Shown: in pieces, positions 6,942-48,991 of the stretch
Layout of the letters: each line of letters opens with the position of its first letter
How positions within the stretch are numbered: position 1 is the first letter of the stretch
Source of the DNA: an uncultured bacterium
GTDB taxonomy: Bacteria; Hydrothermota; Tepidihabitantia; B3-TA06; CAYQJV01
NCBI GenBank assembly: GCA_964417925.1
Contig: CAYQJV010000005.1
Coordinates: forward strand, 176-64,175
DNA: 64,000 bases
Reading direction: 5' to 3'
Notes under the pieces: model-generated
The model's input: only the letters and a program-made list of their open reading frames with translations
What the model was told of the DNA's origin: nothing
Databases searched by the model: none
Program-made: the position numbers and the translations under genes

Positions 6942-6943
6942 TT

Positions 6944-6976
6944 AAAAGATAAGGGGGGAGACCCCCCTTATCTTTT
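6944..6976 (-). terminator. 15-bp GC-rich stem-loop (AAAAGATAAGGGGGG-AGA-CCCCCCTTATCTTTT), possible intrinsic terminator/attenuator overlapping porV-like stop and abutting C11 peptidase start
   Basis: Perfect inverted repeat flanked by A-run and T-run on both strands; seen directly. Confidence 0.5.
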
Positions 6977-7956
6977 TAAAATACCATTCCTACGGAAACC
7001 CTATGTATCATAGGTAAATATTTGTGATGTTCCACAGCATAGTCCATAAGAATCTTATACATCGGTCTTGGTATCACAAATCCTATTCCTCCTGATAAAT
7101 CTCTATTGTTTCTATTCGTATATCCTACTCTAAAGAAGTACCTGTCGCTTATACTATACTCCATTCCTAAAGCAAATACTTCTCCTTGATCTATTAGATA
7201 TCCAAAATCAGCTGCAAAGGCAAGTTTTGCCTCGGATGTTTTAAAGAGGTAAGTGGAAAGTCCTCCAAGAAATGTAAGTGGAAGGGGAAACGGCTCTGAT
7301 TCATAAGTAGAGGGCACATCTTCACTCATCAATGTATCAGGAGCATGCATGAATTCAAGTGCTTCTCCTTTAAATGCAACATCTGTAGGTGAGTAATTGA
7401 GTGCTACAAATCCCAGTTTTGTATTCTGTATTCCTGTTTCATAAGTTCCTCCTATATCAAATGCTACTGCTGTAGCAGAAACTTTGTGAATATTCATATT
7501 TATTACTTTCACACCAAACCCTGAAGAAAACTTATCGGTGAGCTTGGAAGCATATGTAACTCCTATTGCATAATTATTGGCAGTGAAGTAATGTTCGCCT
7601 TCTCCTAATTGATCCTCGTAAGCGGTCATAAGTATTCTTCCAGAAAGGTGTCCAGTAATTTGTATTCCTATGGCATTTCTACCAAGCGGAATTCCTATGG
7701 CAAGATTTTCCAAGTACATTCCTGCAAATAAATTTGCATGGGTAAAGGAAAAAGTATTTTTACTCACTGTAGTTATACCTGCTGGATTCCAGTATATTGC
7801 ATCAAGCCCATCTGCAAATCCTGCATATGCATATCCCAATGCAGAAGGCCTTGCTCCTCCACCCATTTTTAAAAATGCAGAGGAAGCCCCTATGCCTCCA
7901 AGCCTTGCAAAAGTCACACTCGCAATAACAAGGGCAATGAGAATTATTTTTTTCAT
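6976..7956 (-). CDS. PorV/PorQ-like outer-membrane beta-barrel (putative T9SS shuttle/anchor protein)
   Basis: Signal peptide then FLKMGGGARPSALGYAYAGFADGLDAIYWNPAGI, the N-terminal signature I associate with the PorV/PorQ family; beta-rich, C-terminal Phe; co-operonic with T9SS cargo. Confidence 0.55.
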   Translation of the reverse strand: MKKIILIALVIASVTFARLGGIGASSAFLKMGGGARPSALGYAYAGFADGLDAIYWNPAGITTVSKNTFSFTHANLFAGMYLENLAIGIPLGRNAIGIQITGHLSGRILMTAYEDQLGEGEHYFTANNYAIGVTYASKLTDKFSSGFGVKVINMNIHKVSATAVAFDIGGTYETGIQNTKLGFVALNYSPTDVAFKGEALEFMHAPDTLMSEDVPSTYESEPFPLPLTFLGGLSTYLFKTSEAKLAFAADFGYLIDQGEVFALGMEYSISDRYFFRVGYTNRNNRDLSGGIGFVIPRPMYKILMDYAVEHHKYLPMIHRVSVGMVF

Positions 7957-7973: not shown

Positions 7974-10900
7974 TTATTTTATAATGGCAAATTTACCAAG
8001 TTTTGATTTTCCATCTTCTGTAACTATCTGGTAAATGTATAAACCACTGTAAATGTCAAGATTTTGCTCTGTCCTAAGATTCCAGAATTCACTTCCTCCA
8101 CCCTCGTGTTCTATGGTTTTTATAAGAAGTCCTGAAGGATCAAATATCCTGATTGTACATTTGTATGGAAGCCCTTGGAAGTAAACTCCTCTTTCATACT
8201 TACTCTTATCCCATGGAGCTCTCACATAATAAGGATTTGGCACTACTCTCACACCGTCAAGTGTGTAGTCTTCTTTTCTTTCTTCAAGAGAATGCGTAGA
8301 GATAACAAATTTATCGTCTATAAAGGGCTTAAGAGTCTTTATGTAAAAGGTATCTCCAATCACAGGGTCTACAGTATCTTTTACAACCGCAGTATCTATA
8401 TAAAACTCAACTCTCAAGAGCTTCTCATGAGTCTCTTTGTCAAGTATTTGAACATTATCACCCAAGCTTAAAATTCCTGTAGGAGAAGAATCTAAGTAGT
8501 ATTTAAACGGCACATCTTCGCCGGTCTTTACATCTTTAATTATAAAATTAGCTGGTTTTCCATTTATATCTGTACTGCTTCCTTCTTCAGCAATTACTAT
8601 TATATAATCCGTGGGATAAAGTTTCCATGCTTGGATAGAATGCATATAGTTACATTTACTACCTGCCACCCAACCTGTTTGAGCAGTATCATATTTAGTC
8701 TCCTGATCTATCATCAATGAATCTGGAGTATCCACCGTTATCATTAACCCATCTGCCGGTGGATAGAGATCCTCTCCTTTAATATATTTAACACTATCAA
8801 GTACTATTTCTCCTGTTCTTTTATTCTTTAGGTACCATCCTTTTACCTTATAATTTTCTGAATAAAAGCCAAGTTCATATTCATCTCCAGTAAGTTCCAA
8901 CGGATTTACCACGGTAACTTTAACAAAACCTTTACCTTCACCCTCTACGTGTTCCACGTATGCAGAATCTACGTTGAACTGATCCGCTGCAAACCTTGAA
9001 GGTATTGCAAAATACTTTTTACCTGTTAAACCACTTTCAAGTGAGGGGATACCATATTCTGGTTGAGGTCTGGAATACGAGGTTACACTGTAATAATAGG
9101 TCATTCCGTTTTTAACATCTGTATCTATGTAATAGTATTTAAGCCCTGTTTGTGCTCCTACACTGGAGGATTTATAGGTATTTACTATAAACACATCACC
9201 TTTATTAGGAGTAAGATCGGCTTCAGGACGTTCGGGATCAAATACTCCATTATAAATAGCAACATAAATACCATCAAAATAGATATAGGCTCCAGGAACA
9301 TATCCAGGATGTTCGCTGTATATCGTATCTCCTATCGGATCTTTTACAAAAAATCCTTTTTTATCTTTTATGGCATCTGGATTGTACTCGTATACCTGTT
9401 GTTCTGTCAGATTGTAAACTATAAAGTCTGTAGAATCTGTGAAGTTAATTGCATATGTAGCTTCTTTAAATAACTCATCCTTTGTCTGTGGTTCAAATCC
9501 CTTAAACTCAATATAGGCCATTGAGGTCTTAGTTTTGTAAGAAACCATTGCTGTATCAATGGTATAAGAATTAGCAACATCATAATCTGCAAGCAAGGTC
9601 CATGAACCAGCTATTCCTGTTAAACTTTTATATACTCTGTATCCTTCAAAAGTTTTATGCCCGCTCATCGGGTCTACAAAATTTTCAGGAGAGTTGTCCC
9701 ATACCAGATAAACCTTATTATCGCCTGGAATTACTGTAAGATTGGGAGGAGGTGGTGGTGAGAATCCTACGTATCCCATTTTAAAAAGTGTATCAGCTAT
9801 TTTTGCACTCTCTTTTAAACCTTCTAAGGTTAAAGAGACTATAACTGCAACCGTGAACTCTATCTCTTCACCAGGATAAAGAATCTCATAAGGGCCACTT
9901 GCTGATAACTGCCTCACATCTTTTGGCTCTTCCCATGTCATATACTCTGTGCTCTTAAGCATTTCATACTTGGCACTATCTCCAAAAATTCCTGGATAAT
10001 CGGGTGGGTCTCCATTTAACCATGTAGCAAAACCTGTTAAACCTTTATCTGCGGGTGTTTGAAGCAACACACAACCTATATACCCTGGAGGAGTGCTCCA
10101 ACCCTCTTCATAACCATCCGAATCATAGGTATACCCGAGGTTGAGTTCTTCGTCAAAACCTATCATATCGTCATCAGCATCTCCAACATCGTTATCCATG
10201 AAGTATCCTACATATACATTTTTCAATGGGAATGGATTCATATTCTTTATTTTGTAATTTATGAAGATGATATTGTCATTATAATTGTAGTTCCAAGAAT
10301 AGGTTCTTTGCTCTATTCTTATTCCCAATCCCCATGTATCATATGGTCCTGTATCCCTTATCCATATGACAGTAGCATCATCCTCTGGAATCCAATCTCC
10401 ACCACACGCATAAGTATCTTCCATTGATACAATATCTCCTATTTTAAGCTCCATACCCGCTGGCCTTCTTTTATTCAGTGTAGTATCTGTAAAAGGCCAG
10501 ATAGTCTGATAATCTTCAGGGGTTCCATGCTGAGCGAAAAGAAAGTCTCCTTCTCCTTCATATCCGTATCCTTCAGGAATTCTCTGGGTACTAAAGTAAA
10601 GTCCTAATCCTGAAATATCTCCCATTCCTCCTGCATTTTCAAGTTCGGGAACACTCATTGCACCAAGATCTGAATAGAAAGCAGCTTTTGATACATTGGG
10701 AACCCAAGTAGTGTCATTACCTTTCACCTTAGGATATAAAGCTCCTACCCATATTCCATTCGCCCAACTGTAGTACTGCCCACTACCTGCAGGGTACTCT
10801 CCTACTGATTTATAAATATATTCTCCTCTCAATGCATCAAAAGGAAAGGTACCATCATAATATTCCCAGGAAGGAGGTTGCCTAAACACACCACCTTGAA

Positions 10901-11138
10901 GTGTGTTAGAAACAAGCCATCCCTTTAGATTTCCAACTCCAGTCCATGCAATCATCCACCAATCTGCAGGCTTATCAGTAATCTCTGACATCAAGGATTT
11001 ATCGATCCTTTTTTTATGATGTTTCAGAGGATAGTTCCAATCAAGATTTTTAAAAACTGGAGGACGAGCAAACAGTGGAATTATTATACTTGTTGAAAAG
11101 ATAAGCGCCATTATCATCATAATCTTATTTTTTCTCAT
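7974..11138 (-). CDS. 1054-aa secreted T9SS-cargo protein of unknown family (module-1 cargo A)
   Basis: Signal peptide; Asp-rich DxDxGDxxDDMIG motif; PPPPPN linker; FN3-like segment; C-terminal T9SS CTD (RIFDPSGLLIKTI...GLYIYQIVTEDGKSKLGKFAIIK). Confidence 0.8.
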   Translation of the reverse strand: MRKNKIMMIMALIFSTSIIIPLFARPPVFKNLDWNYPLKHHKKRIDKSLMSEITDKPADWWMIAWTGVGNLKGWLVSNTLQGGVFRQPPSWEYYDGTFPFDALRGEYIYKSVGEYPAGSGQYYSWANGIWVGALYPKVKGNDTTWVPNVSKAAFYSDLGAMSVPELENAGGMGDISGLGLYFSTQRIPEGYGYEGEGDFLFAQHGTPEDYQTIWPFTDTTLNKRRPAGMELKIGDIVSMEDTYACGGDWIPEDDATVIWIRDTGPYDTWGLGIRIEQRTYSWNYNYNDNIIFINYKIKNMNPFPLKNVYVGYFMDNDVGDADDDMIGFDEELNLGYTYDSDGYEEGWSTPPGYIGCVLLQTPADKGLTGFATWLNGDPPDYPGIFGDSAKYEMLKSTEYMTWEEPKDVRQLSASGPYEILYPGEEIEFTVAVIVSLTLEGLKESAKIADTLFKMGYVGFSPPPPPNLTVIPGDNKVYLVWDNSPENFVDPMSGHKTFEGYRVYKSLTGIAGSWTLLADYDVANSYTIDTAMVSYKTKTSMAYIEFKGFEPQTKDELFKEATYAINFTDSTDFIVYNLTEQQVYEYNPDAIKDKKGFFVKDPIGDTIYSEHPGYVPGAYIYFDGIYVAIYNGVFDPERPEADLTPNKGDVFIVNTYKSSSVGAQTGLKYYYIDTDVKNGMTYYYSVTSYSRPQPEYGIPSLESGLTGKKYFAIPSRFAADQFNVDSAYVEHVEGEGKGFVKVTVVNPLELTGDEYELGFYSENYKVKGWYLKNKRTGEIVLDSVKYIKGEDLYPPADGLMITVDTPDSLMIDQETKYDTAQTGWVAGSKCNYMHSIQAWKLYPTDYIIVIAEEGSSTDINGKPANFIIKDVKTGEDVPFKYYLDSSPTGILSLGDNVQILDKETHEKLLRVEFYIDTAVVKDTVDPVIGDTFYIKTLKPFIDDKFVISTHSLEERKEDYTLDGVRVVPNPYYVRAPWDKSKYERGVYFQGLPYKCTIRIFDPSGLLIKTIEHEGGGSEFWNLRTEQNLDIYSGLYIYQIVTEDGKSKLGKFAIIK

Positions 11139-11159
11139 TTCTCTCCTCCTTTTATAATT

Positions 11160-14100
11160 TTAAAAGTTAATTTCAAATCCCAGTTTTATTGTCCTGGGAT
11201 CACTGAAGTTTGCGGGATTATTATAATATTCTTCCCAGTCCTTTAGATCCGCAAGATAAGCATCCCATGCGGTAGGAAATCTATCTGGGTACATCTCTGC
11301 ATATCTTTCGTACCTTGAAGGCTCCCATTCTGGCCTGTTTCCTGGATCATCTGGCAATCCTGTTCTTGAGTACACATTCCTCACATTCCTTATGTTAAGC
11401 ACATTTCTTACATCCAGGTAAAATCTTAAATGCATCTTTTTACCCAGGAGAAAACCTTTTGTAATTTTCATATCAAGGTTATAAGAAGGAGGCATTCTCC
11501 TTGAATTGGGTTCAAGTAAGTTACCTTTTTCGTCTGTAGGGGTATAAGGAGCACCAGAGTGGAAAACAAATTGGAAATTGAGATTCAGGTCAGAAAGTAG
11601 TGTTCCTAAGAAGGTACCTGACATGTAATTCATAGGGAAGTAATAGTTTATATTTGCCTTCACACTGTGGGTAATATCAAACTCAAGGGGATATACGGTT
11701 TTAGGTGGAGGTATATTGGTTCTTAAGTATCTGTAGTAAAACTCTCTTCCAGAGGATCCTGTTCCTTTTGCATTTAAATATGAATACACAAACGTTCCAG
11801 AAAGATACTCATTTGCTCTCTTTGTAATTCCTATATCTATTCCTTTTACAGTGGCAAAATCTTCCAAAGTATATATTGTATAGCTTGCTAATTTCTTTTT
11901 ATAGATCGTATTTATTCTACGGCTGGCAAGAAGATTCTGAACATCTTTGTAATAAGCAGTTATCTCTGCTGCAAGGTTGGGAGTAAATGCATATCTGTAT
12001 CCAACTTCATAGGCAATTGTTTTTTCTGGAGGAAGATTTGGATTACCTATCAGAGGTACCCCCACTGTAATGTCTGCTTCAAGATTTTGATAGAGATCTC
12101 TTAAAGGTACTGGCTGGAAGAAATGACCATAGGATGCATAAAGCACAGACTTCTCTGAAACTGAAAATGAAATTCCAACCCTCGGTGACAACTGCCACTT
12201 AGGAGATGCCTTTGCCTTTCCTGCATCCAGGTTCTCAAGATCAACATAAAATTCTGAATTTGGATCAAAATAGTCAAATCTTAATCCAAGGTTTAATGTC
12301 AAATCTTGATATTCAAACTTATCCTGTATGAATGCTGCAGCAGACACAGGCTCTTTGTGATAATGGTCATTATAAGGATGCTCATTCACAAACTGCACAT
12401 CTGTAAGGTCAAGGAAATACTTAATGTATTCCACTCCTGTTTTTACTTCATGGAACTTGTTCGCCTGCCAAGTAACTTTAAAATTGGCAGTATAGTGTCT
12501 TGTGTTTCTATCATGCCACCAAGGCCAGAAGTAGTATGCCCATCTTCCCCATATAGGGTCGTTTTCATACCTGATAAGATACATATTACCACTGGGTTCT
12601 ATAGAATCATCTGGAATTGAATCCATCTGCCACAGTTTAATATCTCTCTGATACTTTTCAAGGTCAAATGTGTCATAAACAACTTTATAATAATAATCTA
12701 TAGTTGTATCTATCCTTACTATAGTACTCTCCTTCCATGTGGTATCATACTTAAAACCTAAAATGGAATCTGTTCTAAAGTATCTCCAAGTATTTACTTC
12801 ATAGCAAAATTCGTTTCGCGCCTCAACTTCTCTTTTGGCTCTTTCTTCTGAAAGTTCTCCACTCCATATCCATTGTTTGCTTTCTGGGTCATACTTTCCA
12901 TACTTTTCTACATTCTCATAGTACCAGTACCACAAAGCTGTTGCTGTATCTGTTTCACTAACAAGTCCTTTATATCTTTCAAATATTTCTTTCATTGTAT
13001 CCTCTGGCACTGTAAAACGCATGTTTTGAGGATCATACCATCCTTTGCTGTACGCATATCCCACCCATTTCAACCTTCTACCAAAAGCCTTCCACTCAGT
13101 GTAATGCTTTCCATCTTGGGCACTTAAATGATAGTGTGTATTAAAAGTCCCTATGTTGAGTGTATAGAATAAATTGTCTTTTACGCTGTGTATTATCTTA
13201 AGATTCAACTGATAGTTATCTCGCATGTATCTTGGTGTAAAATCAAGCCATATGCCCTTTGATCTTGAATGACTATAAGAATGATACCATTGGGTTGAAT
13301 AATTACCACTCAGAATTGCCTTAAAACCTGTAAAGGGTTTCCATGTAATCTTAGCAGTTCCACTCTTTCTATGTCTGTCATTATGAGGAAGTCTATCCTC
13401 ATGTTCTAACAAATTACCAGAGACAAAAAATGTAAGTCTCGGAATGACTGGAAATGGACCACCAAAGTTTAGACTTATATTGTCATGTCCAAAACCATAC
13501 TTAGTATCACCTATTTCAAACATAAACGGCCTGTCTGTTTCGTAGGTAATAGAACCTTCGTAATTCTTTCCTCCTTCTTTGGTCACAATATTTACAATAC
13601 CCGACATTGCCTTTCCATATTCTGCACTGAATCCTCCTGTAATCACCAGCATCTCTGCAATCGCATTTTTATCTACAAAAACTCCACTTAAGCCAGTAGC
13701 AGGGTCATTTGCATTAATTCCATCCACCACATACACCACTTCACCACCTCTTCCTCCTCGTATATGTAATCCTCCAGAGAGCCCATGACTTGTCTCCACT
13801 GCTCCTGCTTGCAAAGCAACCACATCCTCATAATCTGAAATAGGTGTCTCTCTTAACGTTCTTGCTTCTATGCGCTTCATAGAACTTGTGACATCCTTTT
13901 GGATTATAGGTCTCTCTGCCTTTACCACCACTTCTTTCATCTTTATTGTGGTTGGCTCCAGCTTGAAGTCTATGTAGGTCGTCATATCTGCAGATACCTT
14001 CACGTTTTCTACTCGCATCGGGTTGTACCCTATCATTGATGCTTCTACAGTGTATGTTCCTACAGGTACATTAATGATAAAATAGGATCCGTCAATATCA

Positions 14101-14264
14101 GTAGAAGCTCCCAGTTGTGTCCCAAGAATTATTACGGACGCTCCAACAAGAGGTTCTCCTGTGGACTTATCTATTACCCTTCCGGCAATTTTACCGGTTA
14201 TCCCTGCATATAAAGAACCACTGATTAAGAGGAATAGACACAAAAGAGTAAGGTTTTTTCTCAT
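11160..14264 (-). CDS. TonB-dependent receptor with N-terminal CarboxypepD_reg domain (SusC/RagA-like architecture, module 1)
   Basis: Signal peptide, carboxypeptidase-regulatory-like domain, plug motifs (IRGGRGGEVVYVVDGINANDP, VITGGFSAEYG), 22-strand-sized barrel, terminal Phe. Confidence 0.85.
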   Translation of the reverse strand: MRKNLTLLCLFLLISGSLYAGITGKIAGRVIDKSTGEPLVGASVIILGTQLGASTDIDGSYFIINVPVGTYTVEASMIGYNPMRVENVKVSADMTTYIDFKLEPTTIKMKEVVVKAERPIIQKDVTSSMKRIEARTLRETPISDYEDVVALQAGAVETSHGLSGGLHIRGGRGGEVVYVVDGINANDPATGLSGVFVDKNAIAEMLVITGGFSAEYGKAMSGIVNIVTKEGGKNYEGSITYETDRPFMFEIGDTKYGFGHDNISLNFGGPFPVIPRLTFFVSGNLLEHEDRLPHNDRHRKSGTAKITWKPFTGFKAILSGNYSTQWYHSYSHSRSKGIWLDFTPRYMRDNYQLNLKIIHSVKDNLFYTLNIGTFNTHYHLSAQDGKHYTEWKAFGRRLKWVGYAYSKGWYDPQNMRFTVPEDTMKEIFERYKGLVSETDTATALWYWYYENVEKYGKYDPESKQWIWSGELSEERAKREVEARNEFCYEVNTWRYFRTDSILGFKYDTTWKESTIVRIDTTIDYYYKVVYDTFDLEKYQRDIKLWQMDSIPDDSIEPSGNMYLIRYENDPIWGRWAYYFWPWWHDRNTRHYTANFKVTWQANKFHEVKTGVEYIKYFLDLTDVQFVNEHPYNDHYHKEPVSAAAFIQDKFEYQDLTLNLGLRFDYFDPNSEFYVDLENLDAGKAKASPKWQLSPRVGISFSVSEKSVLYASYGHFFQPVPLRDLYQNLEADITVGVPLIGNPNLPPEKTIAYEVGYRYAFTPNLAAEITAYYKDVQNLLASRRINTIYKKKLASYTIYTLEDFATVKGIDIGITKRANEYLSGTFVYSYLNAKGTGSSGREFYYRYLRTNIPPPKTVYPLEFDITHSVKANINYYFPMNYMSGTFLGTLLSDLNLNFQFVFHSGAPYTPTDEKGNLLEPNSRRMPPSYNLDMKITKGFLLGKKMHLRFYLDVRNVLNIRNVRNVYSRTGLPDDPGNRPEWEPSRYERYAEMYPDRFPTAWDAYLADLKDWEEYYNNPANFSDPRTIKLGFEINF

Positions 14265-14294
14265 GTGTCCTCCTTGTTTTTGTTTATTATTAAA

Positions 14295-14321
14295 CAGAGG
14301 GGAGAGAGGCTCTCCCCTCTG
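14295..14321 (-). promoter_or_regulatory. intercistronic GC-rich stem-loop (CAGAGGGGAGAG-AGG-CTCTCCCCTCTG) between porV-like-2 and TBDR-1
   Basis: Perfect 12-bp inverted repeat immediately 5' of the AAGGAGGA RBS of the downstream cistron. Confidence 0.5.
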
Positions 14322-14345
14322 TAATCTATTGGTTTTTTTATTTTT

Positions 14346-15380
14346 TTAAAGCTCAAGGGTAAATATAATTCTGTGAGAGCCTCCAAGAAATTCAAGATGA
14401 CGATAGGCATAATCTATCCTTAATCTACTACCTGTAACTGGCCTAACTACTATACCCATTCCAGCAGATAGTCCTGTCTTCCATCCTAACTCTTTAGCAT
14501 ACTCTATATCAGTGTTAAAAATATATCCACTTCTTAAATAGAAGAAATTGTTAGTATTGTACTCAAATCCCATATTAATGGTTTCGTTTATGTCAGAGTA
14601 ATGAACAAGGTCCGCAACTAAGGTAAATTTATTTACCTGCGTAGATATCACATCGTATGCTATTCCAAACCTAAATGTAGTGGGTAAAGGATTAGGAGTT
14701 GTTCTATACTCTGCAGGTATTGGCATATCAGGTCTTACACTGTCATAAACATTGATCTGTAATTGTCTCCCATGGAAACTCATTTCTGGGCCAAAATTGG
14801 ACACAGCTACTCCAAGTCTTAAATTATGGGCTCCTCCTGCATCATAAAACAATCCAACATCAAATGCAGGACCATCAGCAGACACATCCCATATCCCTTG
14901 ATGGATAAGTTTAAAGGTAGCCCCAAAAGAAAGCTTCTCAGTGATCATCCTGCCAACCGATATACCAAGGGCTAAAAATGCAGCACTAAAATACACACCT
15001 CTTCCCAGATCCTCTCTCACTGGAGTCGTGATATCATCCAGTTTTGTCTCTTCAAACTTACCAGCAGAAAGTACAGTGGCGCTTATTCCCAGCGTGCCCA
15101 GTCCCTTAACAGGAGTAACAAAGGATATGTATTCGTGGGTCATATCAGAGATCCAGTCAATATGATTGGCAAGTATCTCTATTTTGGAAAGCCTTGCAAG
15201 TCCTGCAGGATTCCAGTAGGTAGCAGAGGCATCATCAGCAACTGCTACGAACGCATCTCCCATACCAGTGGATCTTCCCACACCTATCTTCAAAAACTGA
15301 GCAGTCACTGTGGCAACCTTAGAAAAAGCACCAAATGTAAAGGTAGAAATAATCAAAATGCCCGTCAATATTTTTTTCAT
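14346..15380 (-). CDS. PorV/PorQ-like outer-membrane beta-barrel (module 2)
   Basis: FLKIGVGRSTGMGDAFVAVADDASATYWNPAGLA signature; start moved to second ATG (MKKIL) which has an AGGAGG RBS; ORF track starts 15 nt earlier. Confidence 0.55.
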   Translation of the reverse strand: MKKILTGILIISTFTFGAFSKVATVTAQFLKIGVGRSTGMGDAFVAVADDASATYWNPAGLARLSKIEILANHIDWISDMTHEYISFVTPVKGLGTLGISATVLSAGKFEETKLDDITTPVREDLGRGVYFSAAFLALGISVGRMITEKLSFGATFKLIHQGIWDVSADGPAFDVGLFYDAGGAHNLRLGVAVSNFGPEMSFHGRQLQINVYDSVRPDMPIPAEYRTTPNPLPTTFRFGIAYDVISTQVNKFTLVADLVHYSDINETINMGFEYNTNNFFYLRSGYIFNTDIEYAKELGWKTGLSAGMGIVVRPVTGSRLRIDYAYRHLEFLGGSHRIIFTLEL

Positions 15381-15400
15381 CTCTCCTCCTATCATGAATA

Positions 15401-18397
15401 TTAATGCAAAATTACAAATTTACCAACCTGATTTCCAACCTTGGACTCCACATGGAATATATAAACTCCGGAAGCAACAATCTGGTTATGCATGTTAAGG
15501 AGATCCCAAAATTCCATTCCACCTTTATCGCTTTCCTCATCCGTGGCTCTGTGTTCTATTACCTTTACCAGATCTCCTGCAAGAGTGTATATTCTGATGG
15601 TACATTCTGAAGGAAGATTTATAAATGCAATTTTCCTTGCCTCTCTCTTTATTTCCCATCTATTGTACATTATATAAGGATTTGGAACGACCTTAACATT
15701 CAAGGTATAGGTAGTATCTCTTTTTAAGTAATCAGGGATCACCGTTATAGTGTATTTATTATAAGCTGGTGCAGTGCCAATGCTTTTGTTACCTTTTATT
15801 ATCCATACATCACCGTCATTGATGTATTCTGCTAAGTTACCCAACGGTTGAGTAGCTTTCTTTCTCAATTGAATATAACCACCACACAAATAAATTGCAG
15901 ATATTTCATCTTCATAAGGATCAAGGTATTGCTTAGCTTCTTCCCTTCCAAACTGGAATGCCCATCCATTACCATTTCTTATTCCCTCCTCAGAAACATT
16001 ATTATATTTTGTGAATGGAACAGTAGTTTGATGGTCTAAATCTGTAACCTCTAAGGTAAGTAATCCTCCACTCTTATGCCATACCAGTTTGAAATCACTC
16101 CCTCTATAAGCCCACTTACCTTTTGCTGAAGCGAACTTAATAGAATCCCTCGGGAAGTTTCCTTTTTCTATTACAACATCTTCAAAGATGGAAGATTTAA
16201 TGGTATCTATGTAAAGAGAAAATTCTAATACCACATCTTCCAACGGAGGAAGAGATTTAAATAATTGAGTACCAAAGTTGTAAGAAATGGTATCTTTATA
16301 CTCTCCGCTTCCATAGCGTACAACAAAAGGATACTGGATTGCATTACCTGCATAAAGAGGAGCATCAAATTCTATTTCATATTTCTTTTCGGTCTTTTCT
16401 GCAGAATACATCAATGAAGTAGCAGAAATATCTAATCCTGGATTTACAGTATCTCCTGATTCTACTGCCATAGAAACACTTCCTTCATGGTACTCTACAG
16501 GTTCTGTTCTTGGAATTGCACTCACTGCCTTCTTACCTCCTTCAAGCCAGAAAGGAGTGGGTATGGAATCCCATCCTGTGGTGTCTGTCCATACTACTAT
16601 CTGCTTACCCCTTACAGTATCTCCATCCGGTAGTACAGTATCTATTTCCACGGTATCTATTCTAATAGTATCTATATGGGGAGCAAGAACCGTATAGTAG
16701 TTATAATCAAAAGCAGTTACTGCATAATAATAAGGGAATCCATTCACAACATCATCATCTATGTAATAATAGCGAATACCCTTGTCATCTGCTATGATCC
16801 ATTTAACCGAATCGGCCTCACTGGTATCTGTAAACACAATTCCATCTTTCAAATCGTATGTAGCCAAAAGCTCCCAAGTAATTCCGTCTGTACTTTTGTA
16901 TATTTTATATCCTTCAAAATCATATTGCCTATAATTTGGATCATAGGCTGCACTTCCTGGAACCGAAGCAATGGCATAATAGGGGTCAGGAGTTACCTCT
17001 GAATAGTTATCCCATGTGATTATTATCTCTTTATCCTTTGGAATCAACTTCACATTTGGAGAAGGAGGAGGAGAAGGTAACAACCAATTCATATCGTATA
17101 TAAATTGTGCAGTAGAAGAGACTTTTGCAAGAGGCAGTGTATCCTGCTTTCCATTTATCCAATATTCTGCTGCAATAACTGCAACAACAATTACGGTAGA
17201 ATCCCCAGGTTCAAGACTAAAAGGTCCTGTAGCCTGTAAAAATCTCTTATCTGCAGGTCCAGGATCAAGACTATCATAGGGTTCGTATTCTTCCGTCTTA
17301 TAATTGTATCCTGCCATCATCATGTATCTATCCTTATCTGTTGGTGGATCTATGTCTATTGTAAATCTCTTGAATGCAGTTAAACCAAGTTGTTCTATCT
17401 CACTTGGATCTTCCCAATCAGGGATTCCATCTCCATCACCATCCCCATAAGGTGGATAAAGGGAAATAAGCAAAGTACTGTCAAGCTCTTCTTCATCCAC
17501 CAGTCCATCTCCATCGTTGTCTATACCATCATGCAATGCATAGGGACTTTGTAGATAATCATACGCCATTACTCCAGGAACTCCTGATTCCCATGTTTTA
17601 CCAGGATTCTCATTCCCATCATAGTCCCAGCAGAATCCAACATTATCTACAACAATGCTGTCCTGGGTTTCTGGATCGTAGAAAGTCTTATTAAGAATTA
17701 AACCAATCATATCATCTTTATAATCACCTATATCTGGATCAACCACTGCTGCAACATACATGCTATCCAAGGTATGATCTGTGACATTCTTTATTACATA
17801 CTTAAGAAATACAATGTCTTTATTGGAGGGGTAATTCCAAGCATACACCCATAGATAGATATCTACTCCTATAGGTCTGGTATCTCCTGGATCATGTCTT
17901 GAAGGATCAAGGTCACAGAATGCACAGAACATATCTTGTAAGGAGAAAACTTTTGGCCCTTCAGGACCCCACTCTATATGAAATCTATCCCATGGAACCG
18001 TTGTCCAATCATCTTCTGTAGACTTATACACTTTGTCCTCAGGACTTCCATAACCTTGCTCCCAATAATCATGTATCGTAGGTACCATTTCAGAAGCTCC
18101 TGAATTTGGGTTATAACCATAACTTACAAGGGCTTGACCTGCCTCCTTATCATATGCTCCAACCCATATTCCTGCACCAAATAGGTAATAGTTCCTCAAA
18201 GGCTGTGGCCAGTATCCTCCTGGATCTCCAACTTCAGCATCATGCCCAAATCTACCATCATTGAGTACCTTTAAATTCCAGGCATTTATATCAGACTCCT
18301 TAACATCAAAGATTTTACTTCCTGGACGATATGTTGCAGTTCTTGCTAAAACTACAGAAATGATTAATATACTCATCAACAATATTTTTCTTTTCAT
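15401..18397 (-). CDS. 998-aa secreted T9SS-cargo protein, paralog of cargo A (module-2 cargo B)
   Basis: Signal peptide; shared blocks with cargo A (GIWVGA..., DPDIGDYKDDMIG); IDNDGDGLVDEE Ca-binding-like repeat; C-terminal T9SS CTD. Confidence 0.8.
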   Translation of the reverse strand: MKRKILLMSILIISVVLARTATYRPGSKIFDVKESDINAWNLKVLNDGRFGHDAEVGDPGGYWPQPLRNYYLFGAGIWVGAYDKEAGQALVSYGYNPNSGASEMVPTIHDYWEQGYGSPEDKVYKSTEDDWTTVPWDRFHIEWGPEGPKVFSLQDMFCAFCDLDPSRHDPGDTRPIGVDIYLWVYAWNYPSNKDIVFLKYVIKNVTDHTLDSMYVAAVVDPDIGDYKDDMIGLILNKTFYDPETQDSIVVDNVGFCWDYDGNENPGKTWESGVPGVMAYDYLQSPYALHDGIDNDGDGLVDEEELDSTLLISLYPPYGDGDGDGIPDWEDPSEIEQLGLTAFKRFTIDIDPPTDKDRYMMMAGYNYKTEEYEPYDSLDPGPADKRFLQATGPFSLEPGDSTVIVVAVIAAEYWINGKQDTLPLAKVSSTAQFIYDMNWLLPSPPPSPNVKLIPKDKEIIITWDNYSEVTPDPYYAIASVPGSAAYDPNYRQYDFEGYKIYKSTDGITWELLATYDLKDGIVFTDTSEADSVKWIIADDKGIRYYYIDDDVVNGFPYYYAVTAFDYNYYTVLAPHIDTIRIDTVEIDTVLPDGDTVRGKQIVVWTDTTGWDSIPTPFWLEGGKKAVSAIPRTEPVEYHEGSVSMAVESGDTVNPGLDISATSLMYSAEKTEKKYEIEFDAPLYAGNAIQYPFVVRYGSGEYKDTISYNFGTQLFKSLPPLEDVVLEFSLYIDTIKSSIFEDVVIEKGNFPRDSIKFASAKGKWAYRGSDFKLVWHKSGGLLTLEVTDLDHQTTVPFTKYNNVSEEGIRNGNGWAFQFGREEAKQYLDPYEDEISAIYLCGGYIQLRKKATQPLGNLAEYINDGDVWIIKGNKSIGTAPAYNKYTITVIPDYLKRDTTYTLNVKVVPNPYIMYNRWEIKREARKIAFINLPSECTIRIYTLAGDLVKVIEHRATDEESDKGGMEFWDLLNMHNQIVASGVYIFHVESKVGNQVGKFVILH

Positions 18398-18410
18398 TTC
18401 TCCTCCTTAA

Positions 18411-21158
18411 TTAAAATAGAATACTAAAACCAACCCTTATTAACCTGGGATTACCGTAGTTAAGTGGATTATCCACAAGGGGCTTTCTCGCATTCATGTA
18501 AGACTCATATGCTTCTCTTCTTGTAATATATCCATCGTGGTTGAAATCTCTTGCAGGATGATAATAAGTGGTTCCGATCCATCCAAGATCTGAAAAATCA
18601 TTTTCTGTAATTATAGCTCCATCATCATCTGGCTTACCCGTGGCTCCATGAACTGAAAGCACATTGGTAACATTGAAGAGATTTCTTATATCTGCGAACA
18701 CTTCCATGCTCAGCCCAAATATATTCAACTTTTTGGTGATCTTAGCATCTGTGTACCACACATTTGGCCTTCTTGCAGAATTTAAATCTCCTATCTGGTT
18801 ACCCCTGGTGTCTGTAGGAGTATATGGCAAACCGGTTCTGAAATACGTCACAAAACCAATTTCAGAATTCCTCAAAAGATTAATATGGAAATCCTTTGGA
18901 AACTTAAATCCAAGATCCCAGTTTAAAGTATGTCTTACATCATAATCAAGCCAGTAATCAACAGCTGGTATGGTAATGCCTCTGTAACTCAGATAGTAAT
19001 TTGCATAAGCTGTGGCAGCTGTTCCCTTTGCCTCTTGATAGGTATAGGAAATCTTGGTATGCCAGAATTGTCCCTCAACAAGAAGTTTTGTAAGTGTTAC
19101 TTCAAATCCCTTTACCCTTCCAAATGCAGTATTCTTGTAGAGATAATAAGACATAGGAAGTGCCTGAATCAATTCAGTAGTTACAAGGTCATAAATATCT
19201 TTGTAAAATAGTGTTAAATCAAATGCAAAATAATCGGTCAACTGAGCTTCAAACCCCGTTTCATAGGCGATTGTTTTTTCTGCTGCGAGATCAGGATTAC
19301 CTACTATTATATTCCCCCTTCTTGAAACATCTGCATGCAGAGATTCATAGAGATAGGAAAACCCAGGATCCTGGAAGAAATGCCCGTAGAAAAATCTAAA
19401 CTTAACTCTATCAGTAACAGGAAATGCCATCCCAAATCTTGGGGAGATTTTATATTTGATGGTTGCCCTTACTGTATCATTTCTAAAAAGGCTTTCAGGA
19501 TATACCCTTTTATAAGCAGCTGGATCAAGCATATCCAATCTGAATCCACCCCTTAAGACAAGACCTTCAAAGTCTGCCCTATCCTGTACATAAGCAGCAA
19601 ATCTAACAGGATGTAGTTTATAAGCATCCCAGAATGGATTTGGATCCCAAGGAAGAGAATTCTCATAAAGCATTAAGGTATATTTGTTAAAATCAAAGCC
19701 CGTTTTAAATTCATGTACCTTACCTATGTTAAGGGTATAATCTCCCTTTGCAATATAGGTTTCTGAGGCTCTAAAATGCCATAATCTATAGTCTCCTTCA
19801 CCAATATATAGACCAAAAACGCCCCACGGATTATTGGTTCCATACCATGGTTCTGTAAATATCTCCAATTTATAAAGATTTTTAACTGCTGTATCAGGTG
19901 GTAAGGTATCATTGTGCAGAACAAAATCTTCTGCTTTAAATTTAAATCTATGCCATATACCTGCTTTATCCAGAATCCCCCATATACCTTGCAAATTTTC
20001 TTCTGCTTCTTTATCTCTTATTCCTATAATTCTTCCATTGTAAAAGTATCCAAGTTTAAAATTAATAACACCACTACCAATCATCATATTGAACAACAGA
20101 TTAAGCCTTCTAAAATCCATTCTGTTAGAACGATAATGGTCAAGCCAGTATCTCCAAGACATACTAAAAGAATTCCACTGTTCACTGCTTAAAAATGCAG
20201 CAAGATTTATTTTACCCGAAGGAAACCTAAATGTTAACTTGCCTTCTATTCTTCCCTCATCTCTTTTGCTTGGCAATCTATCTCTATTGGTGTATAGATA
20301 ATCTCTTGTAAAGAGCTCTCCTGAAATAAAGTAGCCTGATTTTTTTATCCCCGGCAAGGGCCCAGAAATATGCCCCTGCCAGTACTTGTATCCATAATTC
20401 AGTGCTGTAGTTGGGAATATAGCATCTGTAGTGTATCTTAAAGCTCCCTCTACACCTGGTTTTGTACCTCCTTCCTTTGTAACTACCTGAATTACTCCAG
20501 ACATTGCCTGGCCATATTCAGGGTCAAAACCACCTGTTAAAACAATAACCTCCTGTATTGCATCCCTTGAAGGAGAAGCATAAGAAATGCCATAAAATGG
20601 ATCCTGAGTATTAATACCATCTACATATGTGGCAACCTCACCAAACCTTCCTCCACGAATATGGGTATAGCCATCTGCAGTAGTAACTCCTGCCTGCAAT
20701 GCGACAAGTCCGGTTAAAGTTTGAACGGGTAATCTATCAAATTCTTTTGAAGAGATAACTCTTGTAGTCTGTACTGCTGTTCTCACTACTACATCTCTTT
20801 TAGCCCTTACCTCAACAGGACCAACCTCAATCACCGTTGGCCTCAACTTAAAATCCACAGTGGTTGTTTGGTCAGGAATAACCAGTACTCCTGTTTTTCT
20901 TACAGTTTGATATCCTATGTATGACGCAACCACAGTGTATGTTCCTGGTGGAATATTAAAAATAAGATAACTTCCTGTCTCATCGGTGGCTGCTCCAAGG
21001 TCTGTACCCTCAATTATAATGTTAACTCCTATAAGGGGCTCTCCGGTCTCTGCATCTACAACCCTTCCCGTAATTCTTCCTGTCTCTCCTGCCCATAAAA
21101 GGGCAAAGAGAGCTATAAGTAAAACTATCTTCCTCATCATATCCCCCTTGTTATTCAA
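18411..21158 (-). CDS. TonB-dependent receptor with CarboxypepD_reg domain (module 2), paralog of 11160-14264
   Basis: N-terminal 100 aa about half identical to TBDR-1 (GRVVDAETGEPLIGVNIII...PGTYTVVASYIGY), plug motifs, terminal Phe. Confidence 0.85.
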   Translation of the reverse strand: MNNKGDMMRKIVLLIALFALLWAGETGRITGRVVDAETGEPLIGVNIIIEGTDLGAATDETGSYLIFNIPPGTYTVVASYIGYQTVRKTGVLVIPDQTTTVDFKLRPTVIEVGPVEVRAKRDVVVRTAVQTTRVISSKEFDRLPVQTLTGLVALQAGVTTADGYTHIRGGRFGEVATYVDGINTQDPFYGISYASPSRDAIQEVIVLTGGFDPEYGQAMSGVIQVVTKEGGTKPGVEGALRYTTDAIFPTTALNYGYKYWQGHISGPLPGIKKSGYFISGELFTRDYLYTNRDRLPSKRDEGRIEGKLTFRFPSGKINLAAFLSSEQWNSFSMSWRYWLDHYRSNRMDFRRLNLLFNMMIGSGVINFKLGYFYNGRIIGIRDKEAEENLQGIWGILDKAGIWHRFKFKAEDFVLHNDTLPPDTAVKNLYKLEIFTEPWYGTNNPWGVFGLYIGEGDYRLWHFRASETYIAKGDYTLNIGKVHEFKTGFDFNKYTLMLYENSLPWDPNPFWDAYKLHPVRFAAYVQDRADFEGLVLRGGFRLDMLDPAAYKRVYPESLFRNDTVRATIKYKISPRFGMAFPVTDRVKFRFFYGHFFQDPGFSYLYESLHADVSRRGNIIVGNPDLAAEKTIAYETGFEAQLTDYFAFDLTLFYKDIYDLVTTELIQALPMSYYLYKNTAFGRVKGFEVTLTKLLVEGQFWHTKISYTYQEAKGTAATAYANYYLSYRGITIPAVDYWLDYDVRHTLNWDLGFKFPKDFHINLLRNSEIGFVTYFRTGLPYTPTDTRGNQIGDLNSARRPNVWYTDAKITKKLNIFGLSMEVFADIRNLFNVTNVLSVHGATGKPDDDGAIITENDFSDLGWIGTTYYHPARDFNHDGYITRREAYESYMNARKPLVDNPLNYGNPRLIRVGFSILF

Positions 21159-22086
21159 CCACCTTTATAGGTATTGCTATCATCGAGGCTTTTAATGATT
21201 CCTTTGGATATACAAATACATGGTATATAATTGCCTCAAAGTAAATCTTCTTCAACCCCGGCTCAGTAAAAACAAATTTCTTTGTAGTATCTGAATAAAT
21301 GTAGTGTTTTCCATCTATCACAAAATATTTAACAGTAGTATCTATAACATTGAATCCTCTTTCAGGGTCCAGGGCTGTCCAAAAACTCTCTATCTCTACC
21401 GTATCTCCTGCTTTCACAGAAATAAGGGAATCAACTGAATAAAGTCTTTCTACTCCATAGGTTGTAGTATCTGGTCTATAATAAATTGTATCCTTCCCAC
21501 CAGAATGACTTAAGATCACACGGAAAACAACAGGAGCATCCTGAATATTGGGAATATCCATTTTTGCTCCGCCTGTTATCTTGGAAAGAATCCAATTCCC
21601 TTCGTCATCCCTTTCAAAGAAAGCCCTCCTCCACACCTCTGCCTCAAAACTCTTTTCAAAGGTTGTATCAATAGAAGTGGGTGTACTATCTCCTTTTCTA
21701 TACACTTTATCAATATAAATCTCAATTGTCCCTTTCAAAGAATCAATTATCTCAACCTCAAGGGTAGTATCAAAAGGACTCAAAATCATCGTATCTTTAT
21801 GAATACTATCCGTAATGTTTCTAAAAAATCCATAAGGTATATATCTTTCCATAGAGATATTATCCTTAACATAATCTTCAATAACTCCAGGAAGCTCTAC
21901 CTTTTCTTTTTCAAGAAAGCCAAGAGAATATATTATATCTTGATTCTCTTCCAAAAGATTCATAATTGCAGTTGTATCCTCTGAAGAGGGTTCCCAGGGA
22001 GGTGGGGGAGGTTCTTTGGTACAACTATTAATAAAAAATAGCAATATCCCTATTATTACACATCCTATCCCATGCTTTATCCTCAT
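21151..22086 (-). CDS. lipoprotein of unknown function (lipobox FFINSC, Pro-rich linker)
   Basis: Signal peptide with Cys lipobox, PPPPPWEP linker; sits immediately upstream of TBDR-2 with 8-nt overlap. Confidence 0.6.
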   Translation of the reverse strand: MRIKHGIGCVIIGILLFFINSCTKEPPPPPWEPSSEDTTAIMNLLEENQDIIYSLGFLEKEKVELPGVIEDYVKDNISMERYIPYGFFRNITDSIHKDTMILSPFDTTLEVEIIDSLKGTIEIYIDKVYRKGDSTPTSIDTTFEKSFEAEVWRRAFFERDDEGNWILSKITGGAKMDIPNIQDAPVVFRVILSHSGGKDTIYYRPDTTTYGVERLYSVDSLISVKAGDTVEIESFWTALDPERGFNVIDTTVKYFVIDGKHYIYSDTTKKFVFTEPGLKKIYFEAIIYHVFVYPKESLKASMIAIPIKVVE

Positions 22087-22099
22087 GTTTTTCCTCCTT

Positions 22100-22128
22100 C
22101 TGTGGAGAGGGAACTCCCCTCTCCACAG
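22100..22128 (-). promoter_or_regulatory. intercistronic GC-rich stem-loop (CTGTGGAGAGGG-AACTC-CCCTCTCCACAG)
   Basis: Perfect 12-bp inverted repeat immediately 5' of AAGGAGGAAAAAC-ATG of the lipoprotein gene. Confidence 0.5.
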
Positions 22129-22137
22129 AGTTTAACT

Positions 22138-23871
22138 TTACCTTATTAAGGTAATCTTACCAGAGTAAGTACCTTTTTCTGTTTTTAAAGTGTAGAAGTA
22201 TATGCCTGAACTAAGGCCTGGAACTTTTATCTGATTGTTTCCACGTGTTACATTTAACGTTCTTTCAAAGACCTTTCTGCCTGCAGTATTGTAAAGTACA
22301 ATACGAGCATTATCAACAGCAGTTTTTGAAGTTATATGTATAGCACCTGTTCCTCCAAACACTGTAATGTTTTCAGAAACCACGGCCTCCTCAATTCCTA
22401 CGGTTGTGGGTACTTTTAGTATCACAGGAAGATATTTGTCGTAAATTGTTGCAAGTTCATCGTTAAGCAGATGAGTATAGTAAACATCTCTTCCATCTAA
22501 CTGTTCACAGAAGAATATGTGAGCAACTGCAGTACTGTCATCCACAATCTGAAGGTTCTTTGCTACATGAGGCCTACATTCAGTCTCTTCCTCAGTATTT
22601 GTAACATTTGCCTCACTAAGATCGTTCCACTCCACCCCTCTGTTCCAACTATACCTTACGTATATATCCCACCTTATTCCTTCTCCAGCTGTGGAATCTG
22701 CAATATCTTCCTGCTGCCCCCATACCGCTGCAATCCATTTATCAGAAGTAGCCAAACTTATACAACCAGGGTCTACAAGTGGTGCTATTGCACCTGGATC
22801 AGGCTCTGCATTTACAAGAAATGCGGTATCACTAACTTCAGGAATGTATACATACACTGCACCAAAAGGAGGATATCTTCCTGTCTGGTCATAGTATTCA
22901 TACCGAGAATAGATAAATGCAGGAGAACCATCATCAAACAATGCAACCTGTAAATCCACATAAGCTGGTTGACCTTCTTTGAATAGATGGAATGTATCAA
23001 TTACAGGAACATAAAACTCTATAGGTTGAGGGGATGACCAGGTTTCTCCTTCATCTTCTGAGGTTACATAATAATACCCATGAGAATTATTATCCCATGC
23101 CGCCACAATTATCTTGTCTCCTCTAACATCCCAACCAGAAAGAAAAACTGCATCTCCTAAATCTGGGAACAATTGTGTCTGTACCTCAGTAGAGGTAAAA
23201 TCATCCAAGGTTCTATAAAACCATACAGCACCCTTATCAGTTCCTAAAGTAATCTGCATTACAATACCAATGGCACCACTCTCCAGCTGTTTTCCTATCA
23301 CTTTATGACAATCAATATCACCTCCTAAGGGAAGAGGATCATCCCATACTCCACTTCCCCATCCACCAGAACCATATGCTCCAGCAGGAATCCCCCAGGC
23401 AGGACCTTCTGTCAACACAGGGAATGTAGCTCTTGGATAATCGTCATAGGAAACCACTGCTGTAGGATACCTTCCTCCAGGATTTGACCCAGAAATTCCA
23501 AACTCTCCCCTAAAAATGGTATCAGCAATATTTTCTGAAGTAAATTGATCAGATGAACTATGTGCTATTATAATTCCTGTAGGATCAAGACCTCTATTCA
23601 CTATCAACACATAACCAGCTTCTGGATTCCAAGAAATACATTCATGTAATGCCCCAAAAAGACATCCCCAAGCATGGCCTGAAGAGTCTACAATAACTCC
23701 TGTGCTGAATTTCACATCAGGAGAAGGCGAAATATAACGGCCATTCTCCGCATCAAAAGGACTGTACTTATTAAGTATCATCGCACTTTTATTGAGTTCG
23801 TTAACAGGTATATACATTGCTGCTGTTAACACACTCACCATAAAAACACTTAATAACATCTTCTTCATCAT
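22138..23871 (-). CDS. BNR/Asp-box repeat secreted protein with T9SS C-terminal sorting domain
   Basis: Signal peptide, SxDxGxTW-type repeat (TSEDEGETWSS), C-terminal CTD (ARIVLYNTAGRKV...SGIYFYTLKTEKGTYSGKITLIR). Confidence 0.7.
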   Translation of the reverse strand: MMKKMLLSVFMVSVLTAAMYIPVNELNKSAMILNKYSPFDAENGRYISPSPDVKFSTGVIVDSSGHAWGCLFGALHECISWNPEAGYVLIVNRGLDPTGIIIAHSSSDQFTSENIADTIFRGEFGISGSNPGGRYPTAVVSYDDYPRATFPVLTEGPAWGIPAGAYGSGGWGSGVWDDPLPLGGDIDCHKVIGKQLESGAIGIVMQITLGTDKGAVWFYRTLDDFTSTEVQTQLFPDLGDAVFLSGWDVRGDKIIVAAWDNNSHGYYYVTSEDEGETWSSPQPIEFYVPVIDTFHLFKEGQPAYVDLQVALFDDGSPAFIYSRYEYYDQTGRYPPFGAVYVYIPEVSDTAFLVNAEPDPGAIAPLVDPGCISLATSDKWIAAVWGQQEDIADSTAGEGIRWDIYVRYSWNRGVEWNDLSEANVTNTEEETECRPHVAKNLQIVDDSTAVAHIFFCEQLDGRDVYYTHLLNDELATIYDKYLPVILKVPTTVGIEEAVVSENITVFGGTGAIHITSKTAVDNARIVLYNTAGRKVFERTLNVTRGNNQIKVPGLSSGIYFYTLKTEKGTYSGKITLIR

Positions 23872-48978: not shown

Positions 48979-48991
48979 CCAACCTCCTTTT

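Follow-up and report, generated by a model that had tools for sequence, protein, structure and literature searches.

Two ancient paralogous modules of a TonB-dependent receptor, a large T9SS-type protein and a PorV-family barrel in an uncultured bacterium

In the attachment complex of Porphyromonas gingivalis, the C-terminal domains (CTDs) of PorZ and PorU are not cleaved and remain stably bound to a barrel of the PorV/PorQ family. Barrels of the PorV family act as carriers that take the CTD of a substrate from the T9SS (type IX secretion system) translocon (PMC10994853), and substrates of type B keep their anchor on a cognate barrel, similar to PorP/SprF, that is encoded next door (PMC9143113). 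The current work concerns a stretch of 64,000 nucleotides from an uncultured WOR-3 bacterium (positions 176 to 64,175 of contig CAYQJV010000005.1, assembly GCA_964417925.1; "the window" below), in which two successive sets of genes encode a TonB-dependent receptor (TBDR), a large protein with a T9SS-type CTD (cargo) and a PorV-like barrel (PorVQ). The set transcribed first is called module A and the other module B, and the three-gene unit in general is called the triad. The original prediction had placed a tandem duplication of such a module at 7974-21158; this interval covers five of the genes, and the second PorV-like gene was left out.

The two sets consist of six intact open reading frames (ORFs) on the minus strand. 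As predicted, their gene order is identical; they also share orientation and have similar G+C content. TBDR-A and TBDR-B are 31% identical over the full length (BLASTP, E 3e-123). By region, the identity is 56% in the N-terminal ~120 amino acids (aa), where about half had been expected over the first 100; it is lower for the plug (45%) and the barrel (34%). PorVQ-A and PorVQ-B, which had been proposed as related on their N-terminal signature, share 31% identity over their whole length (E 8e-44) and both exceed the cut-off of the family model NF033709. For the two cargo proteins, BLASTP gave two collinear blocks, one of ~350 aa with 29% identity (E 1e-22) and one of the last 108 aa with 40%. 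When the profiles of the two orthologue families were compared with hhalign, 762 columns aligned at 100% probability (E 2.9e-99); they run from close to the N-terminus as far as the C-terminus (A 71-950, B 105-1070). The view that the similarity is limited to generic domains was therefore rejected, because all three pairs are full-length homologues, including cargo proteins that have no Pfam family and align over ~760 columns. At the DNA level, just remnants of 25-56 nt were found, located at homologous motifs and ribosome-binding sites. No long DNA repeats join the copies; a recent repeat was rejected, and the copies are thus old.

The depth of the split, which the original prediction had also read as ancient, can be seen in identities among the window and six other loci. 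Within type A the TBDRs are 46-50% identical, against 30-35% between A and B; the corresponding values are 40-42% against 25-29% for cargo and 46-51% against 29-34% for PorVQ, and TBDR-B is 42-44% identical to other B-type TBDRs. Cargo-A has 676 homologues at E <= 1e-3, of which the closest outside its own lineage, in metagenome-assembled genomes (MAGs) of WOR-3, are ~40% identical over the full length; full-length homologues at about this identity number in the hundreds there. The orthologues of cargo-B, a separate set, come from WOR-3, TA06 and Fermentibacteria and are 37-49% identical to it. Both window copies resemble their orthologues elsewhere more than each other, and cargo-B is closer even to orthologues of another phylum than to cargo-A. 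Neighbour-joining (NJ) trees were made for 67 complete triads from BLOSUM distances with midpoint rooting. The nearest-neighbour loci of the window copies are identical in all three families, and the three family distance matrices correlate with r = 0.85-0.93 (TBDR versus cargo, r = 0.93). In this crude tree, sequences of Cloacimonadota, Hydrothermota and KSB1 lie near the A clade and those of Fermentibacteria inside the B clade. The same nearest neighbours and the correlated distances show that the three genes were duplicated together, long before the divergence of the WOR-3 lineages; the A/B duplication is probably older than some phylum-level splits.

The receptor and barrel genes can be assigned to known families. 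TBDR-B is a TonB-dependent receptor with both its plug (PF07715) and its barrel above cut-off; in TBDR-A the plug is above cut-off, the barrel is sub-threshold in Pfam, and the TBDR hidden Markov model matches with 1282 bits. The motifs GPVEVRAKR in TBDR-A and KEVVVKAER in TBDR-B, located between the N-terminal extension and the plug, presumably resemble TonB boxes of the Bacteroidota type. The SusC/RagA model TIGR04056 matches only the N-terminal region, with 70.2 and 80.0 bits against a cut-off of 368. NF033709 is covered from profile position 2 to 320 by PorVQ-A and from 5 to 326 by PorVQ-B, out of 326. The models of PorV proper (NF033710; 63.1 and 49.7 bits against 250), PorQ proper (NF033711; 77.5 and 70.4 against 220) and PorV2 (81 and 56.7 against 325) were not reached. 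Judged by these profiles, PorVQ-A and PorVQ-B are members of the PorV/PorQ family, not orthologues of the named T9SS components. The sole PDB sequence match of PorVQ-A is PorV of Flavobacterium johnsoniae (6h3i_F, E 7.8e-4).

The large protein in the centre of the triad is less familiar. Cargo-A has no Pfam match, and neither cargo protein exceeds any curated Pfam or NCBIfam cut-off; a PDB sequence search with the cargo family profile gave nothing meaningful. No known enzyme family can be assigned to the cargo: there was no curated match, and the Foldseek matches indicated no catalytic domain. The AlphaFold2 model of cargo-A, based on 56 homologues (pLDDT 82.8, pTM 0.69), is almost all beta. 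The signal peptide is followed by a beta-supersandwich-like N-terminal domain of ~420 residues that contains an invariant DxDxG motif; the invariant residues of this domain are D155, D162, D220, D222, G224, D354, D383 and R385. Beyond it the model shows an Fn3-like domain with a beta-hairpin of ~30 residues, variable middle beta-domains and a C-terminal beta-sandwich at residues ~900-998. An acidic insertion in cargo-A at residues ~290-330 (17400-17530), DGIDNDGDGLVDEEELD...DGDGDGIPDWEDP, resembles calcium-binding thrombospondin-type repeats; it matches the NCBIfam model acid_disulf_rpt with 18.5 bits, below cut-off, and is absent from cargo-B and from the family consensus. A short internal DNA repeat is present in cargo-A at 17409-17515.

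The CTD is the best-conserved part of the cargo proteins, with identities of 60% (A-A), 55% (B-B) and 41.5% (A-B), and the N-terminal and Fn3 domains are conserved along with it. The middle region is the least conserved, with 35%, 25% and 18%, respectively. The C-terminal ~90 aa are homologous to the CTDs of canonical type A cargo, which are marked by a PNP motif and a C-terminal GKxxhh strand: 67 cargo CTDs aligned with 41 canonical CTDs of neighbouring genes over 81 columns, at 97.9% probability (hhalign, E 4.2e-13). A CTD that is conserved more strongly than all other parts suits a lasting function in binding better than a signal to be discarded.

The N-terminal domain is not restricted to the triad. 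The ~450-aa domain of cargo-B is found with 50-56% identity in four proteins of ~1100 aa (P0194, P0196, P0199 and P0208; P0194 56% over 451 residues), which differ in the C-terminal half and carry a canonical Por_Secre_tail. Joined in this manner to other C-terminal parts, the domain behaves as a mobile unit. One protein with the N-terminal domain only probably shares its contig with a B-type module. Variants of ~1200 aa (P0130, P0134, P0136 and P0145-P0149) carry a precomputed match to PF04865 (Baseplate_J).

The triad is widespread. When one genome per GTDB species was scanned with the cargo alignment, it was found at at least 592 loci in many phyla of the Fibrobacterota-Chlorobiota-Bacteroidota (FCB) group, and 80 of these loci were fetched. 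Among the matches listed were WOR-3, Hydrothermota, KSB1, Cloacimonadota, Ignavibacteria, Kapaibacteria, Calditrichota, Marinimicrobia, Rhodothermales, Kryptonia, Glassbacteria, Poribacteria and others; the scan also matched MAGs labelled Verrucomicrobia and Lentisphaeria. A HMMER search with cargo against 1.84 billion cluster representatives returned 2,661 matches at E <= 1e-30 and 8,421 at E <= 1e-10. Nearly every fetched locus of sufficient length has TBDR, cargo and PorVQ on one strand, and the 67 complete triads, drawn from ~60 loci in many FCB-group phyla, have the order TBDR-cargo-PorVQ; in Poribacteria a gap of ~4 kb separates TBDR and cargo. Two loci are exceptions: L061, in which 70 nt separate the cargo gene from a TBDR gene that comes after it and a PorV-like gene between the two is missing, and L067, in which two cargo genes stand in tandem. 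Partial tblastn matches without intact ORFs were seen in L019 and L033 (complete WOR-3 chromosome CP070834.1), and assembly frameshifts may explain them. CTD-bearing proteins are frequent neighbours of the triad (16 of 55 downstream, 15 of 39 upstream), and FG-GAP proteins with T9SS tails lie directly upstream of the TBDR in 8 of 39 loci, in other phyla. Apart from these the neighbours vary, and no conserved flanking function was found beyond WOR-3.

Within WOR-3 the surroundings are more regular. The A-type operon occurs elsewhere as lipoprotein, TBDR-A, cargo-A, PorVQ-A and C11 peptidase, with no B module (L001, L008, L010, L013, L014, L017 and L018). The C11 gene, its conserved final gene, directly follows PorVQ-A in seven other genomes, from WOR-3 and one Hydrothermota MAG (L018). 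Homologues of the lipoprotein lie directly upstream of TBDR-A in L001, L007, L008, L010, L011 and L013-L017, and the set ExbB-ExbD-ExbD-TonB that opens the window's string of genes is found upstream of related modules in L004, L007, L009, L011, L015 and L016. B-type modules (L003, L004, L005 and L009) occupy separate loci with different flanks. Two of these four (L004, L009) have their own ExbB-ExbD-ExbD-TonB set upstream, and two (L003, L009) have CTD-bearing S8 and InhA-like peptidases downstream. Three of them encode, between cargo-B and PorVQ-B, an extra NHL/PKD beta-propeller protein of ~590 aa (L003 13237-15009, L004 13403-15217, L009 13412-15166). It is absent from the B modules of the window, L007 and L005, the last of which (Fermentibacteria) is a bare triad. 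In the window genome, as in one close relative, module B is set into the A operon: it separates PorVQ-A from C11 and interrupts this otherwise conserved junction. Among the genomes examined, the arrangement of A beside B was found in L007 only, where the six proteins are 69-82% identical to those of the window.

The explanation of the whole that we favour, and consider probable though well short of certain, is that the locus holds two ancient paralogous modules in which the large protein is the T9SS-displayed partner of a TonB transporter, tethered by a PorV-family barrel. The large protein would be exported first through Sec and next through the T9SS, its CTD would be recognised by its own PorV-family carrier barrel, and it would stay bound there. 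Displayed beside the cognate TonB-dependent transporter, it would capture or present a substrate for TonB-powered import, and the variable middle region may give the two paralogues different specificities. That the cargo stays bound to its own barrel is suggested by the private PorV-family gene, the conservation of the CTD and the co-divergence of the pair. The invariable TBDR, the Ton system in the same string and the motifs similar to TonB boxes point to a unit that serves TonB-powered transport. Since T9SS-secreted peptidases recur next to the modules, C11 with A and S8 and InhA-like with B, the substrates in WOR-3 are most likely proteins or peptides. Substrate specialisation of A and B, as originally proposed by analogy with polysaccharide utilisation loci, is plausible. 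The logic of that analogy is fair. For the locus, Pfam and NCBIfam showed nothing similar to SusD, and scans of its genes and of 20 further window ORFs revealed no carbohydrate-active enzyme.

Several points weigh against this explanation. No binding or catalytic domain could be recognised in the cargo with Pfam, NCBIfam or Foldseek; the Foldseek search of cargo-A against the PDB returned only matches of low TM-score (0.18-0.24), to GH116, GH94 and dextran dextrinase with their N-terminal beta-sandwich. The cargo CTDs fall below the curated thresholds of Por_Secre_tail (PF18962) and TIGR04183, with no match for A and 16.5 bits for B (cut-off 23). T9SS core genes (SprA, PorK-N, PorU) were absent from the scanned ORFs of the window (23 of 41 of at least 150 aa). 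The peptidase link is confined to WOR-3 clades, and flanking genes vary in other phyla. The NJ trees are crude, and therefore the depth of the A/B split is approximate. We infer the physical association of the triad proteins, the fate of the CTD and the substrate from genes and sequences, and the import direction through the TBDR is our assumption.

How the two modules came to be adjacent can be judged from the loci elsewhere. The original prediction was right that the module had been duplicated as a unit in the distant past, as the congruent A/B split indicates; a local tandem origin of the adjacency was not supported. The copies are not mutual closest relatives, and adjacency is limited to the window and L007. 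Read most simply, two paralogues that had long been apart came to lie side by side in this narrow lineage. It could still be argued that A and B were born at this locus in a distant ancestor, so that the adjacency is ancestral and other lineages dispersed or lost one copy. The identical order and orientation and the similar G+C content of the modules agree with such an origin, as do tandem triad pairs in unrelated genomes (L060, an FCB-group MAG, and L074, with L061 and L067 as partial cases). However, among the loci that come next in similarity, those of type A (L008, L017, L001 and others) and those of type B (L003, L009, L004 and L005) each hold one module only, at different places and with different flanks, and the junction of PorVQ-A and C11 that B breaks here is intact even in L018, Hydrothermota being another phylum. 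The L060 pair lies inside the C clade and is thus an independent event. Birth of both copies in place is therefore, in our judgment, unlikely. The independent pairs in other phyla (L060, L074) nevertheless make tandem duplication a likely general source of new paralogues of the triad module.

Different functions for the same genes must also be weighed. One is export, in which the TBDR would be a TonB-powered, Oar-like exit for the CTD protein and the PorV-like barrel would receive it, the whole forming a self-contained unit of secretion and display. The TBDRs do have the architecture of the Oar subclass (CarboxypepD_reg extension, plug and large barrel), and secretion of the protease PopC depends on Oar and its Ton system (PMC6434023). 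The strict pairing of TBDR and cargo across phyla and the close correlation of their distances would fit a dedicated transporter-substrate pair. The family moreover occurs in MAGs labelled Poribacteria, Verrucomicrobia and Lentisphaeria, groups that are not known to have a T9SS. Yet the cargo ends in a CTD homologous to the ordinary T9SS CTDs that many neighbours carry without a TBDR of their own, the PorV family is a carrier family of the T9SS, a multi-domain beta protein of ~110 kDa is a difficult passenger for a 22-strand barrel, and TonB-dependent transporters of the CarboxypepD_reg type include the importers SusC and RagA; we regard export as improbable. Housekeeping is another candidate: two pairs of a CTD protein and a PorV/PorQ barrel mirror PorU-PorV and PorZ-PorQ, and could be their WOR-3 counterparts in T9SS attachment. 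The best weak NCBIfam matches of the cargo C-termini are indeed the PorZ and PorU models (23-29 bits), and the Foldseek list includes PorZ (5m11) and PorU (6za2). These matches, however, are confined to the CTD and lie far below the cut-offs (260 and 420 bits), the TM-scores to PorZ and PorU are 0.08-0.09, and neither a C25 peptidase nor the PorZ beta-propeller fold was found, so that identification of the cargo as PorU or PorZ was rejected. Many genomes have one type only or several extra copies, the PorQ and PorV equivalog models are not reached, and a TBDR, for which an attachment complex has no need, is always attached. A housekeeping role is thus very hard to credit, and we retain the displayed, barrel-tethered partner of a TonB transporter.

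All genes from 4992 to 26005 lie on the minus strand with short spacers, and their order of transcription is ExbB, ExbD, ExbD, TonB, the 577-aa CTD protein, the lipoprotein, module A, module B and the C11 peptidase (Table 1).

Table 1. Genes and hairpins of the TBDR-cargo-PorVQ locus in the window, in order of transcription for the genes
Feature	Position	Strand	Remarks
ExbB, 208 aa	25379-26005	-	Pfam MotA_ExbB 93.7 bits; opens the minus-strand string
ExbD, 135 aa	24968-25375	-	Pfam ExbD 84.8 bits
ExbD, 136 aa	24561-24971	-	Pfam ExbD 94.9 bits
TonB, 205 aa	23935-24552	-	Pfam TonB_C 88.6 bits
577-aa protein, canonical T9SS type A CTD	22138-23871	-	TIGR04183 37.1 bits (cut-off 23); Por_Secre_tail 35.7 bits
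Putative lipoprotein, 311 aa, start MRIKHGIGCVIIGILLFFINSC...	21151-22086	-	8-nt overlap with the start of TBDR-A; specific to A-type operons
TBDR-A, 915 aa, TTG start	18411-21158	-	Pfam CarboxypepD_reg 73.8 bits, Plug 28.8 bits; barrel
Cargo-A, 998 aa	15401-18397	-	Signal peptide; conserved T9SS-type CTD ~896-998
PorVQ-A, 349 aa as listed	14346-15395	-	NF033709 182.8 bits (cut-off 90)
TBDR-B, 1034 aa	11160-14264	-	Pfam TonB_dep_Rec_b-barrel 95.9, CarbopepD_reg_2 77.4, OMP_b-brl_4 55.2, Plug 34.1 bits
Cargo-B, 1054 aa	7974-11138	-	Paralogue of cargo-A over the full length (hhalign)
PorVQ-B, 326 aa	6976-7956	-	NF033709 144.7 bits (cut-off 90); outside 7974-21158
C11 (clostripain-family) peptidase with T9SS CTD, 649 aa	4992-6941	-	Peptidase_C11 115.2 bits; TIGR04183 24.1 bits
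14-bp GC-rich hairpin	22098-22130		Between the 577-aa and lipoprotein genes, just before an AGGAGG ribosome-binding site; consensus match only
Hairpin in the 81-nt spacer of modules A and B	14301-14319		13-bp stem to ~14297-14321; A/T-rich tail without clean T-run; consensus match only
Palindrome in the PorVQ-B/C11 spacer	6951-6969		Terminator-like on both strands; 15-bp stem to ~6945-6977

The 577-aa protein has no recognised domain besides its CTD in Pfam or NCBIfam, and L007 has an orthologue at the equivalent position. The 311-aa protein, for which Pfam and NCBIfam gave no match, is a putative lipoprotein by its N-terminal sequence. The start of PorVQ-A is most likely the ATG at 15380 (MKKIL, after GGAGGAGA) instead of 15395, to go by the reading of the gene; the resulting 344 aa equal the length of the L007 orthologue.

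Three GC-rich perfect hairpins with stems of 13-15 bp sit exactly at module borders. They were located by a scan for terminator-like sequences and by reading of the sequence, and are consensus matches only; they could be terminators, attenuators, RNA-processing sites or an element similar to repetitive extragenic palindromes. A GGAGAGGGG-like arm is common to the hairpins at 22098-22130 and 14301-14319. The annotated ATG of the C11 gene lies 3 nt past the 15-bp hairpin, with no visible ribosome-binding site at 6941-6950; its true start may lie further downstream, or its expression may be unusually coupled.

Elsewhere in the window, at 44075-51609 (minus strand), a PorV-like element is again found together with a CTD protein. 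A 606-aa protein (44075-45895, minus) with a PorV/UPF0164-like N-terminal region, CarboxypepD_reg and an OmpA domain overlaps by 4 nt the end of the gene of a 1028-aa FG-GAP protein (45892-48978, minus) that has a tail of FlgD_ig/CHU_C type; upstream are a 442-aa protein without a family and a beta-propeller similar to PQQ/BamB. Two convergent genes, at 28302-32708 (plus) and 33640-37578 (minus), encode proteins of 1468 and 1312 aa that are alike in having an adenylate/guanylate cyclase domain, an AAA_16 ATPase and TPR/MalT-like repeats, and a gene of 863 nt lies between them.

The duplication itself is ordinary gene-family evolution; the conserved, undescribed triad is the notable part. The cassette is strictly conserved around a central protein of ~1000 aa without a Pfam family, and it joins two systems that are usually treated apart, namely a carrier barrel and CTD protein of the T9SS and a TonB-dependent transporter. 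No description of the triad was found in literature on the T9SS of WOR-3 and the FCB group, on PorV, PorQ and PorV2 with TonB receptors, and on utilisomes. If the complex is real, it would show how FCB bacteria outside the well-studied Bacteroidia build surface devices for nutrient capture, and the principle of the cognate carrier in the T9SS would be extended to the PorV family. A bolder view, which we put forward tentatively and hold to be possible but less than even, is that in the triad the FCB group has an ancient outer-membrane machine, so far unrecognised, that would physically couple the T9SS to TonB transport. The cargo, tethered by its retained CTD to a private PorV-family barrel, would be the extracellular partner of the transporter, and the triad would be a non-lipoprotein counterpart of utilisomes of the SusCD type that predates them; in the radical version of this view the transporter would be the TonB-powered export route of the cargo. 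Since cultured carriers exist or are likely (the scan matched Ignavibacterium album, Rhodothermales and Melioribacteraceae MAGs), the idea is directly testable.

Among described systems, the PorZ-PorQ and PorU-PorV pairs of the attachment complex resemble the triad in combining a CTD protein with a barrel of the PorV/PorQ family, and the weak PorZ and PorU matches are in line with this. The triad cargo differs in being similar in the CTD only, in having a TBDR partner and in its variable, lineage-specific copy number. The utilisomes of Bacteroidota (SusC/SusD, RagA/RagB, BtuB/BtuG) likewise place a TonB transporter of CarboxypepD_reg type beside a surface-exposed accessory protein, and their loci also multiply and diverge as paralogous modules; the link of the modules with peptidases recalls RagAB with gingipains. 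In contrast to these systems, no homologue of SusD, RagB or BtuG is present, and the accessory protein is not a lipoprotein but has a T9SS CTD and its own PorV-like barrel. Oar of Myxococcus xanthus, compared at the level of architecture, shares the PF13620 extension, the plug and an adjacent Ton system (PMC6434023); it exports PopC, however, without a PorV-like or CTD component. The type B cargo pairs SprB-SprF and PG1035-PorP are similar in that a large secreted surface protein is encoded beside a dedicated barrel, proposed as its carrier or anchor through a retained CTD (PMC9143113, PMC10994853), and in that the pairs multiply as paralogous sets. In the triad, however, the barrel belongs to the FadL-like PorV/PorQ family and not to PorP/SprF (TIGR03519 17.7 bits), the CTD is type A-like, and every such unit includes a gene for a TonB-dependent receptor.

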